From the NCBI GenBank assembly GCA_000004695.1, contig CM000154.2:4928001-4992000 (forward strand): DNA of 64,000 bases. The letters are read 5' to 3'. Positions 8,261-16,594 of the stretch are shown in pieces. The notes under the pieces were generated by a model. It did not search any database, was not told where the DNA came from, and was given only the letters and a program-made list of their open reading frames with translations. The first letter of the stretch is position 1. Each line of letters starts with the position of its first letter. This DNA comes from Dictyostelium discoideum (taxonomy: Eukaryota). Position numbers and translations under genes: made by a program.

Positions 8261-11200
8261 ATGAAAAAAATTTTATTTATATTTATTTCATTTTATTTCA
8301 TTCAATCCATTTTTGGTGCGATTGAAAATAAAAAGGTAATAATACAACAAAATAATTTTTTAATAAATTATTTATCACTTTTAAATAATTATGATTTACC
8401 AAATTCAAAAGTAACATTGGAAAATAAAAATGATTTAATTAAAATTAATACCACTACTAATGGAAGTAGTATAATTAGTTTTGATGATTCATTATTTAAG
8501 CCAATTAAATTATATTTTGAAGATAAAATTAATAATATTTCGATTATAGAAAATAATAAAACTATCAGTTTTGATTTATTATTTAATCAAACAAATCAAC
8601 AGTACTATATAAATAGTAATAATAATAATAATAATAATAATATTATTTATATAACATTATATAAAGAGTTGCAACAAATTAAATCATTATCAATATTTAC
8701 ATCAATTATTGGGGATATTAATGTTAAAATTAATAATTCAGTAGCAATTTTAAACAATATCACCAAACTTCCAATTAAACTAGATAATGGTAATTTTGAA
8801 AATATTTATAAATCAATTTCTCACCAAATTATTAAAAATTTAAAACAATCATTATATAATGAAAACGAAAAAAATTTATATGGATACTATGATTTTGAAA
8901 ACAAGCCCGAACAAACTCAAACCCTTTCATTTTTAAAAGGTTTTCTAAATTTTTTACAAATCTCAATCAAAAAGGTAACAATCACGCAACCTTTTTTTTT
9001 TTTTTTTTTTTTTTAAAAATTAAAAAATCTAACCGCCACCAATTTTTTTTTTTTTTTTTTTTTTTTCTTTTTTTTTAGAATTCCCACACAAAACCACAAG
9101 CAAATTTTTCTTTTCTTTATAACGATAATGTAAATGTTTTTTATGATTTGAAAAATTTAACGTAAGATATTTTTTTAAACTATTTAATTTTAAAAAGACA
9201 CAATGGTAAAAATAAACGGAAATATCTAACTCGCAAAAAAAAAAAAAAACAGAAAATCTAAAAGTAACGCATCATATTACAGCTCTTCAATAACATCATT
9301 CTTTTATGATTTATATGAATTAGAAGGTTTTAAAGAATCAAGTGTATCATTTTTAATTGATGTGTTAAGTAATAATGAAAATGTTTATGATTTCAAAACA
9401 TATTTCGTAGAGTTATTAAATGCAGCCAATAATGATAAAAAACCAATGATTTATCAATCATTAAATTCAAATTATTTGTGTTTCTTTGAAAGTAATTGCC
9501 AATTCATTGCACCAAAAACATCATCACTCGAATCAAATTCAACCTCTGCTCAATCAAAGACAACCGATATATCCTCTCGTGCTTCAATTGGTGTATTGGA
9601 AGACCAAGTTAATTCTATTCAATCATTATTATCAGAAGTAGAAGTTGGAAATCCAAAAACCATTCCATTTTATAGTATTTACAATTATGTTTATACCTAC
9701 TCTGATACAAATTACGATGATTTTATTCAAAATGCTAGAATTGATAGTCCGCATACTAAAGACTCTAAAAATAGATGTGTTTTCCAAGATTCTAAAAATA
9801 GATTTTTCGATTTATCACCAACTTCAAAGTATGTATTCTTTTATTTTTTATTTTTATTTTATTTATCTTTGGATTATTATTTTATTTTCTGCCCTATTTA
9901 TTTATAATTATTTTTTTAAAAAAATAATTAAATTAAAATAATTTATCTCAATTATACCATTATAATAGTGTTTTAGGATCATCGCAATATACTACAATAA
10001 ATGGAAGCAAAATTTTTTATTTTAGTCTTTGTGAAGCATCAACTTTATGTACTGCTACAGCTGGTGAAGGACCAGTTCAATCATGTGTTTCAGTAGGTAC
10101 CACAACCTATACAACTGGTATTACTCCATTCAGTCATGTCCAATTCTTTGATAATGGTTTAACAATTCAATACCAATCAGGAAAAATCGATAGTACCACG
10201 TGTACCAATCAAACTGGTTATCATAGAATAAGTAACTTTATTTTAACTTGTGATACAACTCAAAATTATGCAATTAAAGGCTTTGTTGAAAGTTCGCCAT
10301 GTGTCTACGATGTTAAAATCTCCACTAAATTTGCTTGTCCAATTGAAAACAAATACTTATTTGGTAGTAATCAATATGATTTAAGATCAATGAAATTGTA
10401 TGTAGTTTATTATTATTATTATTATTATTATTATTTTTATTATTATTATTATTATTATTATTATTATTATTATTATTATTATTATTATTATTATTATTAT
10501 TATTATTATTATTATTATTATTATTATTATTATTATTTGCTAATTAAAAAATAATTATTAAAGAGAATCATCATCAAATCCATATTCGTCAACTTTTGAA
10601 CTCGATAGATTCCTTTTCAATTTGGGTGGATCTGTTGATGTATGTACTACATTCTCAGGATTAAGTGGAAAATATTATGGTTGTCTTATTTTTGGACTTG
10701 AAAAAACAACTATTCCTTTCTCTGATAAACCAACAGTATCCAAAGTACCATTTATTGCAAGTAGTAATACATCAAACAATATTTTAATTTCATTTAGTTC
10801 ATCATCTACCCCTACCATTTGTACAACCAAGCCAGAGATAAATATATATATCAGATGCTCCAATACTGAATTTACCGTTTTAACCATTGTCAATAACTCG
10901 AATTGCAATCAAACAATCTATGCATCATCTAAAAATGCATGTCCGTTAGCATATTACGAATACTTTGGAAGTAATCCTTATTCCAGTAGTACTCTTTATG
11001 CTCAAGTATTTGATTTTTCACCATTACAAAATAGAACAATGTAATTATTCCTTTATTATTATTACTTATAGTTTATTTTATTTTATTTATTAATTTTAAA
11101 TCTAAAAAAAAAAAAAATAAAAAAAAATAAAAAGAAATGGTTCAATCGAATACCTTGGTCTATCAATTGGAAATGTATATTCTTCTTATTATCATAATTT

Positions 11201-14200: not shown

Positions 14201-16594
14201 TACGATGATAAACATTTGAATACATCGGAAATAAATCAATATTGGATAGTTGGTAGAGGTTTAGGTTCAATTGTTGAAGAAATACCAGAAGCAACAGTAG
14301 ATGATGTTGATTCATATTGTGAAATTCAAAGTTGTACTTCAGATGTAATTGCAAATAGTAAAATCGATTATTCAAATATTTGTCCATACTTGAAATCCCA
14401 ATATGCATATTATTCAACCGATTTCGATCTTTACCTTTGTAGTTTCCCAATAAATGTTGGTGCTAATAGAACAATCCAAGTTACACTTGCAAACAATGCC
14501 AGATATACTTATAAATATTCATATTCTCTACCATGGCTTTCCGAATTCTTAACTGCCAATAGTTCAGATACTCATGGTGGTAATTGTAGTAGATTAAATT
14601 GTGTAACTCCTCCACAAAAACCACAATATTTAAATATTACAGGTTTTAATTTCAATCCATTCGAATTTATTTCACCATTTTATGATTCAAATAAAACGAT
14701 TGCATCTTGGAGAAATACTTCAAGAATTTATATAGGTACATTTGAATGTGGATCAGTTCAATGGATAAATTCAACCAATGTTAGTTGTATTATTCCACCT
14801 GGTATCGGTGCCAATCTAAAAGTTAATATTACAATTGGTGAACAAAAATCTGAAAATCAACTTTTATTCTCTTATAATAAACCAAATATTACAAATAAAA
14901 TTACAGTATCAACTGATGGTGCCACTGATATTAAATATGTTGGTTTCAATTTCGTTCCCGCTGAATTAAAAGATTTTTATAATAAAGAAGAAAACAAAAA
15001 TGTTTCAGTAAATTCAATAACAATCAATGGTAAAACTCAATATAAAGATATTAAATGGATAAATTCAACAAGTTTCTCATTTAATCCAGTTGCAGGTATT
15101 GGTAAAAACCATTCAGTTGTACTTTTAGTTGGTGGACAAAAATCAAATGAAACAAGATCATTCTCTTATAATCCACCATCATTGGATAATAAACAATATG
15201 CAGCACCATCTTCAGGTGGTAAAACTATTACAATCAAAGGTTATGACTTTGTTCCAAAATCATTGAAAAACTCTGTTAATTCGTCAAATGGTACAGTTTC
15301 TATTAATGGCGTACTTTGTGCCAACTGGGAGTGGGTTGATTCTAAAAATGTAAAATGTACTGTACCACCAGGTAAAGGAAAAGGTTTACCAATTCGTGTT
15401 AATGTTCAAAGTCAATTAAATAGTCTTAATAATTACTTTTCTTATGTTGATCCAGAATCTCCAACAAATATTGTAATTTTTATTGTTATTGGATTAGCAG
15501 CTTTGGTTGCAGCAGCATTATTAGCATCAACTGCTTTACCACTTACACAAATAGCATTGGCAACATCTGCAACAGCAGCTAAATCTGGTTCAATATTAGC
15601 ATCTACAGCATCATTTTCAGGAGCATTAGAGAAATCATTACAATTTGGCTTCGCAGCAGTAACTAGAAGAGTTGTAACTCAGGTTGCAAAGAATGGTATT
15701 AAACGTGTATCAACTATAGCTTTAGCAATGGTGGTAACAAAATCATCAATGGGTGGTAACCTATTATCATCATCAACAGCACCAGTACCAACATTCAATC
15801 TTTTATCAATTGCTTCAACACCTTACTCTGCAGTATTTTTCTCAATTAATCATAATGATCGTATCTTTACAATTGATAATCAATTCAATGAAACTGTAAC
15901 ATGTATTGATAATAATAATTTAAGTTTCAATTTCAACAAATCATTCACTTGTCAAATTAATGCTAATAATAATGGTATTAAATGTAATACAACCAACTTT
16001 GGAACTGAAATTAATTGTGGTGTTCGTTCAAAATCTGCATCCTATAAATTCTCTATTCCAACGGTTTCAAAAGTTTCAAGTTCATTAAAATGTGAATATG
16101 ATGCCAATGAAAAATCAATGATAATCTATGGTCAAAATAGTCCAATCTATTGTAAAGATGGATTTAACGAATATACATACAATCATAATTCTACTATTTT
16201 CTGTTCAAATAGTGAAACCCAATCAAACATTGTTGAATGTGTTAGTGATGGCGGTGAACCTGAACATTCATTCATTAATAATGTAGAATGCTATAATTAC
16301 AATAAATATTCATCATGCTCAAAGAATTCATTGGTAAAAGCTTCAGATTATTCTGCATGCTTTGAAGTTCCACCATCCGAAGTAGAGCCAATCGTAATTA
16401 CCAATCAAACTATTATCACAGAATTCAACTCTGCATCAAGTAAACTTGCCTGTTATCCAAAAGAAGTAGAATTTAACTATGCATATAATAATACCCTCAT
16501 TTGTTATAATGTTAAATCTGGATCCATCGATTATTCTGATTCTATCCTTCATCAAATACAATACAAAGTTAAAGTTTGTATTGAAAAAGAATAA
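8261..16594 (+). CDS. Large secreted type-I transmembrane glycoprotein of about 2436 aa. It has a signal peptide, about five ~140-aa Cys-containing repeat modules with MRH-like cysteine spacing, IPT/TIG-like repeats, an Ala-rich hydrophobic segment and a Cys-rich C-terminal region. Proposed model: join(8261..8974,9079..9161,9283..9828,9969..10397,10564..11040,11135..11560,11650..11692,11766..12656,12746..13755,13903..16594).
   Basis: Signal peptide MKKILFIFISFYFIQSIFG at exon 1. Every proposed junction uses GT...AG with consistent phase (checked 0,2,2,2,2,2,0,0,2). Repeat modules end ...C.Y.....ACP/ACQ and are encoded by exons 4, 5, 6 and 8. IPT/TIG-like strings include ITYSATNPKYNSLITVTGENF and LSKTTGKIGDLVTVNGQNFFNGS. 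A hydrophobic stretch IVIFIVIGLAALVAAALLA lies near aa 1990. It resembles the Dictyostelium Tgr-like IPT/TIG family, but no symbol is assigned. The exon model, especially exons 1-3 and the exon 4 donor choice, is moderate confidence. Confidence 0.58.

Follow-up and report, generated by a model that had tools for sequence, protein, structure and literature searches.

The gene DDB_G0291065 of Dictyostelium discoideum AX4 occupies the whole of positions 8261-16594 on the forward strand of the window (the stretch of 64,000 nucleotides analysed here), and it encodes a predicted secretory-pathway membrane glycoprotein of 2462 amino acid residues. We infer that the product is probably a glycan-binding membrane receptor, in which four mannose-6-phosphate-receptor-homology (MRH) domains are carried on a TIG stalk.

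Gene Structure of DDB_G0291065

The splice model comprises 10 exons from the ATG at 8261 to the TAA ending at 16594, and the 7389 nt joined through GT..AG introns of 73-166 nt contain zero internal stops. The features of the locus are as follows:

5229..7712 (-): DNase II-like gene; two ORFs, probably one gene (PF03265, E=1.6e-25)
8261..8974 (+): exon 1; ATG, signal peptide, start of an N-terminal region without family match (splice model, hydropathy, Pfam)
9079..9161 (+): exon 2; 83 nt, phase 0 to 2 (splice model)
9253..9828 (+): exon 3; phase 2/2, remainder of the N-terminal region; the final ~19 codons, from 9770, are the MRH1 start, NRCVFQDSKNRFFDLSPTS (splice model, module alignment)
9770-10341 (+): MRH1, aa 439-582 (module profile)
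9969..10397 (+): exon 4; 429 nt, phase 2/2, MRH1 body (splice model, module profile)
10342-10945 (+): MRH2, aa 583-728 (module profile)
10564..11040 (+): exon 5; 477 nt, phase 2/2, MRH2 body (splice model)
10946-11492 (+): MRH3, aa 729-879 (module profile)
11135..11560 (+): exon 6; 426 nt, phase 2/2, MRH3 body (splice model, module profile, Foldseek)
11650..11692 (+): exon 7; 43-nt microexon, phase 2 to 0, early MRH4 (splice model)
to 12044 (+): MRH4, aa 880-1009 (module profile)
11766..12656 (+): exon 8; remaining MRH4, then copy 1 of an unmatched module (splice model, self-comparison)
12075-12632 (+): unmatched module copy 1, aa 1020-1205, ~180 aa, Cys-containing (self-comparison)
12746..13755 (+): exon 9; unmatched module copy 2 (aa 1206-1400), linker, most of TIG1 from 13547 (splice model, self-comparison, PF01833)
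13855..15445 (+): exon 10, first part; TIG1 end, TIG2, divergent Cys-containing segment (aa 1657-1773), TIG4-6 (PF01833)
15452..15562 (+): exon 10; transmembrane segment, aa 2083-2119 (hydropathy)
15563..15805 (+): exon 10; Ala/Ser/Thr-rich basic segment, aa 2120-2200 (hydropathy, alignment with the long paralogue)
15806..16594 (+): exon 10; C-terminal 262-aa domain and stop codon (Cys conservation, dN/dS)

A single ten-exon gene had been proposed by an earlier sequence-only reading, and this model was borne out by the canonical splice sites, by the structure of the orthologue and by ACTFIT_001809, an NCBI protein from a different D. discoideum strain, which is identical to the 2462-aa splice model. 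The D. firmibasis counterpart (66% amino acid identity) also has 10 exons, with the lengths of exons 2, 4 and 5 unchanged, and the 10-exon structure is common to four loci in three species. Exon 2 measures 83 nt in the ACTFIR copy as well, and microexons homologous to exon 7 were found at loci L001 (46 nt), L003 (43 nt) and L002 (55 nt). In the D. purpureum model P0012, the N-terminal region is also fused to the MRH array. The phase 2 in, phase 2 out arrangement noted earlier for exons 4-6 was confirmed, and exon 3 shares it.

It is extremely improbable that the giant protein is an annotation artefact built from two or more genes (for instance 8261-9016 apart from the downstream exons, or separate MRH and TIG genes). 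The AX4 sister copy appears in the annotation as a pair of genes, DDB_G0290815 (1544 aa) and DDB_G0290813 (901 aa); however, the former terminates in 'GAGSKYV', a read-through into the last intron, and the latter begins at an internal Met, so this split is attributed to a missed intron. In DDB_G0291065 all ten exons connect in frame, the structure is the same at the other loci, and the signal peptide for the secretory-pathway domains comes from exon 1 only.

The MRH Domain Array

A module profile built from 28 sequences (141 positions) identified exactly four contiguous MRH modules, at aa 443-582, 584-728, 730-879 and 880-1009, and no fifth. The ~140-aa modules, of which at least four or five were suggested earlier, are genuine repeats, with the count fixed at four. 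The exon 4 product is 29% identical to that of exon 6 over 101 aa (E=8e-10) and 26% identical to that of exon 5 over 130 aa (E=4e-5). The conserved cysteine and aromatic spacing on which the earlier reading relied was recovered in the modules, for example as FILTC...ESSPCVY...FACP and LSFTC...ENPMCTY...YACQ. The suggestion that each module has its own exon holds for exons 4-6 but not for MRH4, which is split between the 43-nt microexon and the first third of exon 8. Each FDLSPL-type domain start is located in the 3' end of the previous exon, which places the domain boundaries upstream of the exon boundaries by ~19-31 residues.

When the module profile was compared with CI-MPR, a match of E=7e-33 was obtained (best single domain 5.7e-8, covering profile positions 12-141 of 141), and all 14 PDB sequence matches were MRH proteins, with CI-MPR the best. 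The AlphaFold model of MRH3 reached medium confidence (pLDDT 63, pTM 0.60), and its top 50 Foldseek matches were MRH structures only: CD-MPR came first (3.6e-7), and CI-MPR domains 5, 8 and 11, OS-9, Yos9, GII-beta, GNPTG and XTP3-B were included. The model of all four domains was poor (pLDDT 45). In single-sequence Pfam searches, CIMR, ATG27 and PRKCSH_1 matched below their gathering thresholds, and in MRH3 only. By profile and predicted fold, the modules are bona fide MRH domains of the CI-MPR type, in agreement with the MRH-like or lectin-like character first proposed for them.

The array resembles CI-MPR in its tandem ~145-aa MRH domains, FDLSPL-type start, conserved disulfide cysteines, membrane anchor and a Gln/Arg/Glu/Tyr sugar-binding set in some domains only. 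It differs in having four MRH domains rather than 15, in the absence of a recognisable cytosolic sorting motif, in the two unmatched modules and the TIG stalk beneath the array, in the Cys-rich domain past the membrane segment, and in being confined to dictyostelids. CD-MPR, OS-9/Yos9, glucosidase II beta, XTP3-B/ERLEC1 and GNPTG share the fold of MRH3, but they are soluble or short membrane proteins of the ER/Golgi lumen with one or two MRH domains each, and none has TIG.

All four introns of the MRH modules are in phase 2. In the module alignment, three of them occupy one column and the fourth is offset by three columns. A long paralogue, only 26-35% identical, retains exons of 477 and 435 nt and a microexon. 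Repeated duplication of a phase 2/2 exon is the most likely origin of the array and would predate the divergence of the short and long paralogues; the shared phase, the homologous intron positions and the pattern kept in the long paralogue fit the tandem exon duplication read from the sequence earlier.

Sugar-Binding Residues

MRH3 is the only module with all four canonical sugar-binding residues: Q797 (within the motif FACQIL, 11235-11252), R841, E862 and Y868. In bovine CI-MPR domain 5, the equivalent positions align with the CQ, R-x7-C and E-x3-C-x-Y motifs of MRH3. The spacing of E-x3-C-x-Y and R-x7-C in MRH1 and MRH3 also appears to match that of OS-9. MRH1 contains R544, E565 and Y571 with no Gln after the Cys, and the positions of MRH2 are degenerate (NNSNCNQ). 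The MRH3 residues are invariant in all seven orthologues and paralogues aligned (identity down to 62%), and the same four occur in the third module of the long paralogue (P0010).

Other Parts of the Protein

Two strong hydropathy peaks only were found in the protein, the signal peptide (aa 1-19, 8261-8317; peak at aa 1-23) and the transmembrane segment. The 420-aa N-terminal region and the ~180-aa module gave no family match in Pfam; the two copies of the module are 33% identical to each other (E=5e-17). The IPT/TIG repeats proposed to follow the MRH modules are present, but not directly behind them, as about 470 aa intervene, including both unmatched copies. Five of the six ~100-aa segments match PF01833 (25.4, 34.8, 40.2, 19.9 and 64.3 bits). 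Four exceed the cut-off of 20.9 bits, segment 5 (19.9 bits) lies slightly under it and segment 3 has no PF01833 match, giving a count of five to six TIG domains.

The transmembrane core, IVIFIVIGLAALVAAALLA, has a Kyte-Doolittle value of 3.11 and is the sole strong internal peak, one clear membrane helix that forms the hydrophobic anchor. The sequence-only reading had described a long Ala-rich hydrophobic region in place of a crisp helix: the Ala-rich stretch exists, but the crisp core precedes it. This stretch, after the helix, is basic and moderately hydrophobic; its counterpart in the alignment with the long paralogue is the loop plus the second TM-like peak. Within the protein, constraint is strongest in the C-terminal 262-aa domain, where 14 Cys are invariant. 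This domain confirms the Cys-rich but not the sequon-rich character ascribed earlier to a ~370-aa C-terminal region, since its seven sequons equal the number expected by chance (about seven by our own estimate, 13% Asn x ~20% Ser+Thr). The polypeptide past the TM helix may lie outside the cell instead of forming a cytosolic tail. No fold could be assigned to about 1,270 of the 2,462 residues (N-terminal region, two mid-modules, linker and C-terminal domain).

Selection, Family and Genomic Neighbourhood

The dN/dS of DDB_G0291065 was 0.34-0.36, which indicates purifying selection, and the protein is identical in the two D. discoideum strains AX4 and ACTFIT. No domain exceeded 0.6 against D. firmibasis; the top value, 0.92, was that of an 80-aa linker in one comparison. 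MRH4 is the fastest-evolving MRH module, and the C-terminal part changes more slowly than either MRH4 or the N-terminal modules.

By sequence search, the family appears restricted to dictyostelids, with 18 matches among 1.84 billion representatives, all in the D. discoideum/purpureum group. Tandem copies are present in D. firmibasis, D. cf. discoideum and strain ACTFIR; AX4 holds a second copy, and the long-type models of D. discoideum are fragmented. The long-type paralogue (D. cf. discoideum ACTFIZ_008383/008384, 3198-3199 aa; D. firmibasis RB653_006925) shares the four MRH domains, phase 2/2 MRH exons and microexon, unmatched module, TIG arrays, Ala/Thr-rich membrane region, Cys-rich C-terminal domain (13 of 14 Cys conserved) and head-to-head DNase II-like neighbour. 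Unlike DDB_G0291065, it lacks the 420-aa N-terminal region, has TIG arrays between its two unmatched modules, contains a larger number of TIG domains and a Pro/Thr-rich linker, and shows two clear TM-like peaks. Outside the family, the modules are most closely related to dictyostelid proteins consisting of an MRH array only (Polysphondylium violaceum CYY_005925 and CYY_007853; metagenomic P0015 and P0017). Their 2-7 tandem modules each match the module profile (1e-11 to 1e-25), and CQ / R / E-x-x-x-C-x-Y motifs occur in many of them, but the proteins have no N-terminal region, unmatched modules, TIG stalk, TM or Cys-rich C-terminal domain. Another MRH gene of D. discoideum is DDB_G0283243.

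DDB_G0291065 and the DNase II-like gene are arranged head-to-head with a common upstream region of 548 bp. The pairing recurs at paralogous loci (gene tables of L002 and L003), where the DNase II-like partners are 30-33% identical (tblastn).

Proposed Function and Alternatives

In the favoured reading, that of a membrane-anchored lectin receptor, the TIG stalk would hold the MRH array away from the membrane. With their full and three-quarter residue sets, MRH3 and MRH1 would bind the mannose ring of N-glycans; candidate ligands include the glycans with phosphomannosyl or methyl-phosphomannosyl groups that are typical of Dictyostelium glycoproteins. A structural or protein-binding role, as in most CI-MPR domains, may fall to MRH2 and MRH4, and the conserved C-terminal part may link binding to a partner that sits within the membrane or beside it.

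Because three of the four modules lack the complete set, the array could instead be mainly structural, a protein-binding scaffold without lectin activity; the protein would then be an adhesion or matrix receptor that binds its ligand through the N-terminal region or the unmatched modules. Only 4 of the 15 MRH domains of CI-MPR are carbohydrate-recognition domains (PMC7481795), and large conserved parts of the ectodomain have no family match; however, the conservation of the MRH3 residues, extending to the long paralogue, is hard to explain without a sugar-binding role, and we regard a pure scaffold as rather unlikely. Another possibility is a functional equivalent of the mannose-6-phosphate receptor that acts in the Golgi, in endosomes or at the cell surface to sort or take up lysosomal hydrolases bearing phosphomannose (Man-6-P-OMe). 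In line with this are the CI-MPR-type repeats with the full set in MRH3 and the partner gene, a lysosomal-type hydrolase, kept at the paralogous locus where both partners are ~30% identical. A passage in PMC2114169 describes Dictyostelium as having no detectable Man-6-P receptor, and another in PMC7481795, citing Marron-Terada 2000, states that mammalian CI-MPR recognises Dictyostelium lysosomal enzymes. However, acidic-cluster, dileucine and NPxY sorting motifs were absent after the TM helix (a single YxxPhi match was found) in a region that may not be cytosolic. Lysosomal sorting is universal whereas the family is narrowly distributed, the MRH-only proteins P0015-P0018 are simpler candidates, D. 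discoideum has the further MRH gene DDB_G0283243, and the TIG stalk and size are atypical for a shuttling receptor; such a role is accordingly improbable.

The resemblance to Tgr proteins (TgrB1/TgrC1 and about 60 relatives) pointed out earlier was only partly upheld. The signal peptide, repeated IPT/TIG (Ig E-set) domains and membrane anchor match the definition of Tgr (bioRxiv 10.1101/2025.10.22.684067), and both families are multi-copy with tandem duplicates and pseudogene-like copies, a birth-and-death pattern to which the second AX4 copy, the fragmented long-type models and the faster-evolving MRH4 and N-terminal modules may be added. A Tgr-type adhesion/allorecognition protein, in which developing cells would recognise one another homophilically or heterophilically through the TIG ectodomain and the MRH array would be an accessory, is nevertheless quite unlikely: DDB_G0291065 is much larger, MRH domains and a 340-aa post-TM region are not described for Tgr proteins, its head-to-head partner is DNase II-like and not a TIG gene, the protein does not vary between the two strains, selection is purifying, and neither of the source annotations retrieved, from NCBI ('hypothetical protein') and UniProt, uses a tgr name. 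The earlier reading knew of no description of the architecture, and our literature search found no functional study of DDB_G0291065 and no paper mentioning the gene; UniProt, however, already names the product (Q54F71) 'MRH domain-containing protein', and a Pfam TIG assignment is among its precomputed features.

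Gene model of DDB_G0291065

To build the splice model, reading-frame segments of the forward strand lying within 8261-16594 were linked through canonical GT..AG sites. It comprised a coding sequence of 7389 nt, which encodes a protein of 2462 amino acid residues in 10 exons and contains no internal stops. The 64-kb window, which is D. discoideum AX4 DNA, is AT-rich, with a G+C content of ∼22%. The features of the splice model were as follows:

8261-8974, 9079-9161, 9253-9828, 9969-10397 and 10564-11040, + strand, exons 1-5
11135-11560, 11650-11692, 11766-12656, 12746-13755 and 13855-16594, + strand, exons 6-10

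A database search identified the gene as DDB_G0291065 (XP_635466; UniProt Q54F71), annotated as an "MRH domain-containing protein" of 2441 residues with 99% identity to the model. The two lengths differ because the AX4 annotation removes an Asn run of exon 1 as an intron and picks a different acceptor for exon 3. ACTFIT_001809, the NCBI entry from another D. discoideum strain, was equal to the splice model at every residue. Mapping of annotated proteins back onto the genomic sequence likewise gave ten exons for the D. firmibasis orthologue, which is 66% identical (711/83/561/429/477/435/46/915/1004/2728 nt), and the copy of strain ACTFIR had exon lengths of 696/83/573/429/480/426/43/891/1004/2746 nt. 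By the Nei-Gojobori method, dN/dS was 0.34 in the comparison with the ACTFIR copy and 0.36 in that with D. firmibasis. On these comparative grounds, the possibility that 8261-16594 holds separate genes, raised beforehand as a potential refutation, was not upheld. The predicted 2462-residue protein is the comparatively supported version, from which the 2441-residue AX4 annotation departs at two splice choices. Most of intron 4 is occupied by a (TTA)44 microsatellite (10407-10537); apart from microsatellites, no RNA genes or notable DNA repeats were found inside the gene.

Four tandem MRH modules and their exons

Segment-against-segment BLASTP related exon 4 to exon 6 (E=8e-10) and to exon 5 (E=4e-5), and exons 7-8 to exon 6 (E=1e-3) and exon 5 (E=2e-3). 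The module profile revealed exactly four full-length contiguous copies, at amino acid residues 443-582, 584-728, 730-879 and 880-1009 (MRH1 to MRH4), and no copy in exons 1-3. Of the modules of ∼140 residues proposed from the sequence, at least four or five in number, four were thus confirmed, and the fifth was dropped.

The profile was built from 28 modules. When it was compared with the PDB, the cation-independent receptor CI-MPR (6um1) was matched with E=7e-33, many receptor domains being matched across nearly the entire profile; the best single CI-MPR domain (5.7e-8) spanned profile positions 12-141 of 141. All 14 PDB sequence matches were MRH proteins (CI-MPR, glucosidase II beta, ERLEC1). 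Single-sequence Pfam searches gave sub-threshold matches for module 3 only, namely ATG27, CIMR (22.2 bits; cut-off 22.5) and PRKCSH_1. An AlphaFold model of the entire four-MRH array, built with seven orthologues, was discarded (pLDDT 45), and a single-module run was substituted. With the 28-module alignment, module 3 was predicted as an all-beta structure of medium confidence (pLDDT 63, pTM 0.60), and a Foldseek search of the PDB with this model returned MRH structures in each of the 50 top matches (TM 0.5-0.63), including CD-MPR, CI-MPR domains 5, 8 and 11, OS-9, Yos9, GII-beta, GNPTG and XTP3-B. Four Cys columns, the putative disulfide-forming positions, were invariant in 28 of 28 modules and were matched to CI-MPR cysteines in the HMMER alignments. 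The full-length profile match, the predicted fold and the Cys columns together assign the modules to the MRH domains (Pfam CIMR PF00878 / PROSITE MRH). The MRH-like character suspected in the sequence-only reading was therefore corroborated by the CI-MPR and Foldseek matches, and the same matches speak against the alternative it had named, that the modules resemble no carbohydrate-binding fold.

In the splice model, exons 4-6 are phase 2/2, as claimed earlier, and so is exon 3. One exon per module held for exons 4-6 but not for the fourth module, as MRH4 is interrupted by an additional phase-0 intron and is divided between a microexon of 43 nt and the beginning of exon 8. The true domain starts lie 19-31 residues ahead of the respective exons, at the motifs FDLSP, YDLRS, FDFSP and IDLRP. 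When the modules were aligned with each other, a single column held the introns of MRH1, MRH2 and MRH4, and the MRH3 intron was displaced by three columns; each of the four is in phase 2. The long paralogue (P0010, 3198 residues, 26-35% identical to DDB_G0291065) has 5' exons of 632/477/435/55 nt, among which the phase 2/2 module exons and the microexon recur. The module intron is therefore older than the duplications of the modules and older than the split of the paralogues. Serial exon duplication predicts the intron pattern seen, and growth of the MRH array by duplication of a phase 2/2 exon, which the sequence had suggested, fits the shared phase and nearly identical intron column of the four modules. 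The modules are at present only 20-29% identical to each other. With its MRH unit equal to one phase 2/2 exon, the gene offers a clean case of domain-array enlargement.

Sugar-binding residues

In MRH domains, Gln, Arg, Glu and Tyr are required for lectin activity and not for the fold. The complete set was found in MRH3: Q797 in the motif FACQ, R841 eight residues N-terminal of a Cys, and E862 and Y868 in ENPMCTY. These residues aligned to their counterparts in CI-MPR domain 5 and were invariant in all seven sequences. MRH1 keeps R544, E565 and Y571, and the Gln after Cys is absent; MRH2 and MRH4 are degenerate at the sugar-binding positions, lacking Glu and Tyr. The four carbohydrate-binding residues have been described as essential, and sugar binding is confined to 4 of the 15 CI-MPR domains (PMC7481795), so that CI-MPR and the DDB_G0291065 array are alike in limiting the intact set to some domains.

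N-terminal region, mid-modules and TIG repeats

The signal peptide comprises residues 1-19. The following region (residues 20-438) gave no significant family match in Pfam and PDB sequence searches; it is conserved, and in D. purpureum, too, it is joined to the MRH array. C-terminal to the MRH array and ahead of the TIG repeats, two copies of a further unit, here called the mid-module, were delineated (residues 1020-1205 and 1206-1400; 33% identical, E=5e-17):

12075-13306, + strand, mid-module pair, two tandem copies of ∼180 residues

The mid-module, whose six Cys are invariant and whose core reads W..N..DW..GQFY, follows the pattern C-x3-C ... GVC ... W..N..DW..GQFY ... C.Y ... GL.I ... C. 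It is also present in two copies in the long paralogue, was found only in the DDB_G0291065 family, was absent from the sequence-only description, and gave no significant Pfam or PDB sequence match. Residues 1481-2080 form six segments of ∼100 residues, of which five matched PF01833; the third is divergent and had no match. Four segments scored 25.4, 34.8, 40.2 and 64.3 bits, above the 20.9-bit cut-off, and one scored 19.9 bits, while the entire last exon reached 104 bits (E=3.2e-30). The IPT/TIG repeats reported earlier were hence recovered above the gathering score both in single segments and in the whole last exon.

Membrane region and C-terminal domain

Residues 2083-2119 form the sole strong internal hydropathy peak (KD 3.1), and a clear transmembrane helix is therefore present. 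It is directly followed by an Ala/Ser/Thr-rich stretch with Lys/Arg. Of the earlier description, a long Ala-rich region in place of a crisp helix, the Ala-rich stretch was retained but the lack of a crisp helix was not. The C-terminal domain (262 residues) contains 14 Cys, all of them invariant in the short-type sequences (DDB_G0291065 and its closest relatives), and the long paralogue, 28% identical here, keeps 13 of the 14. No other region of the protein is as constrained as this domain (dN/dS 0.10-0.15). Neither a CxxC motif nor a sorting motif was found in the domain, and Pfam and PDB sequence searches gave nothing significant. Two lineage-specific modules without family assignment, the ∼180-residue mid-module and this 14-Cys domain, were thus delineated.

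In the long paralogue (residues 2799-3198), two TM-like peaks and then a Pro/Thr-rich linker precede the homologous Cys-rich domain, which would for this reason be extracellular. The DDB_G0291065 counterpart of the second TM-like segment consists of just 11 hydrophobic residues (membrane/C-terminal region, 15452-16591), and its topology is ambiguous: it may be type I or a membrane hairpin. Sequon richness was rejected as a sign of an extracellular C-terminus, because no more sequons were counted than chance predicts from the Asn content; only two to three sequons are retained between the paralogues, which is suggestive only. The C-terminus is accordingly Cys-rich, as stated before, but not sequon-rich.

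Family members and gene copies

When 1.84 billion representative proteins were scanned in full with HMMER, the MRH and mid-module profile gave only 18 matches at E<=1e-3. Those at E<=1e-30 with a source name were all from Dictyostelium (D. discoideum group, D. purpureum), and the weaker matches included MRH-only arrays of Polysphondylium violaceum. No second copy or paralogue was found within the 64-kb window; a second short-type copy of AX4 lies outside it, as DDB_G0290815 and DDB_G0290813. The former (P0032) terminates in GAGSKYV, a read-through into the last intron, and the latter (P0034) begins at an internal Met (MNIKSG). As judged from these ends, the two are almost certainly one sister copy wrongly split through a missed intron. 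An additional full-length tandem copy lies upstream in D. firmibasis (L001 1-5434) and in strain ACTFIR (L003 1-6670), and D. cf. discoideum has two tandem long-type copies (L002 21446-30241). The long-type models of ACTFIT, P0013 and P0014, appear fragmented.

Hyper-polymorphism of the tgrB1/C1 type was suspected because AX4 and "D. discoideum ACTFIR" are 92% identical and the L003 tandem copies are 92-94% identical in nucleotide sequence. It was ruled out: the second AX4 copy clusters with P0002, so that the AX4-ACTFIR difference is one between paralogues, and the true ACTFIT orthologue is identical. No positive selection was detected at the domain level, dN/dS being below 1 in every domain and at most 0.59 for any MRH/TIG domain.

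DNase II-like neighbor

A DNase II-like gene (PF03265, E=1.6e-25; 7712..5229, - strand) is arranged head-to-head with DDB_G0291065 across 548 bp, an interval that contains an A116 run (7752-7867) and a 46-bp tandem repeat of 3.7 copies (7968-8134). The same pairing was found beside the sister copy in strain ACTFIR (L003 6963-10000) and at the long-paralogue locus (L002 6876-10000). Since it recurs at the latter with DNase II-like proteins 30-33% identical in amino acid sequence, the pair seems to have been duplicated long ago as a unit; both members, MRH-TIG and DNase II-like, are ∼30% identical between short-type and long-type loci. We consider it very improbable that the two form a conserved lectin-receptor/glycoprotein-ligand pair and that the family is Dictyostelium's long-missing phosphomannosyl (Man-6-P-OMe) recognition system, with a TIG stalk replacing the classical MPR chassis. 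Interest in the gene would grow if lectin activity on Dictyostelium phosphomannosyl glycans, or a functional tie to the DNase II-like gene, proved true.

Candidate function

DDB_G0291065 encodes a secretory-pathway membrane protein with an array of four MRH domains that sits on a stalk of TIG repeats and includes one intact, conserved set of sugar-binding residues. From this architecture we infer a lectin receptor of the membrane, with mannose-type or phosphomannosyl N-glycans as its ligands, which could serve in surface recognition/adhesion, in glycoprotein uptake or sorting, or in another process.

A functional mannose-6-phosphate receptor is a type I protein whose cytosolic tail carries acidic-cluster/dileucine or YxxPhi sorting signals. 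Among the 343 residues past the transmembrane helix of DDB_G0291065, no [DE]xxxL[LI], DxxLL, NPxY or acidic cluster was found, and there was a single YxxPhi match, which argues against an analogue of this receptor. Such an analogue is nevertheless attractive because Dictyostelium is reported to be without detectable Man-6-P receptors (PMC2114169); its lysosomal enzymes bear phosphomannosyl glycans recognized by mammalian CI-MPR (Marron-Terada 2000, as cited in PMC7481795). Also against it are the restriction of the family to few taxa and the fact that simpler MRH-array proteins exist. Moreover, the MPR ectodomain is all MRH (1 domain in CD-MPR, 15 in CI-MPR), whereas MRH accounts for 571 of the ∼2060 ectodomain residues of DDB_G0291065, the remainder being N-terminal region, mid-modules and TIG domains. 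The protein is best filed as a variant on the MRH-repeat receptor theme.

The annotated tgr set comprises ∼63 genes, many but not all of them paired head-to-head, and tgrB1/C1 are highly polymorphic. What would make DDB_G0291065 a Tgr-type protein, as had been proposed from its resemblance to this family, is solely the TIG repeats and the membrane anchor. It does possess the signal peptide, IPT/Ig E-set repeats and transmembrane segment by which Tgr proteins are defined (bioRxiv 10.1101/2025.10.22.684067), but the tests run went the other way: the AX4 and ACTFIT proteins, the two strains compared, show no within-species polymorphism, the dN/dS values give no diversifying selection, overall or in any domain, and the head-to-head partner is not a tgr gene. 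In two word-index homologue searches, the TIG and C-terminal region gave 1 protein as a single sequence and 5 proteins as an alignment, with no Tgr among them, and no source gave DDB_G0291065 a name other than "hypothetical protein" or "MRH domain-containing protein".

A literature search found no paper on DDB_G0291065 or on an MRH-plus-TIG architecture, in agreement with the earlier remark that such an architecture had not been seen described; public databases, however, already annotate the gene together with the MRH and TIG domains of its product, and the discovery as such is therefore not new. As a membrane protein, it is a concrete candidate for a role in glycan recognition by the model organism Dictyostelium, having CI-MPR-type repeats with one intact invariant sugar-binding set whose residues can be named for mutation, and the old question of a Dictyostelium Man-6-P receptor becomes testable through it.

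Other features of the window

A tRNA-Lys(CTT) gene is located at 19709-19783 (- strand). The adjoining multi-copy DNA (∼19830-20584) matched several sites in the reverse-transcriptase-bearing flank of L003, and it looks like a tRNA-targeted retroelement remnant. The large ORF at 34718-40054 (+ strand), with protein kinase, DEP, RasGEF_N/RasGEF, GRAM and cyclic-nucleotide-binding domains (the last as two matched stretches), is a GbpC-like Roco-type signalling protein. At 744-2510 (- strand), a bifunctional ATP-sulfurylase/APS-kinase (PAPS synthase) gene consists of one exon, and its exact protein was recovered from one further D. discoideum assembly and from seven ∼1.9-kb contigs in Logan assemblies of sequencing runs.
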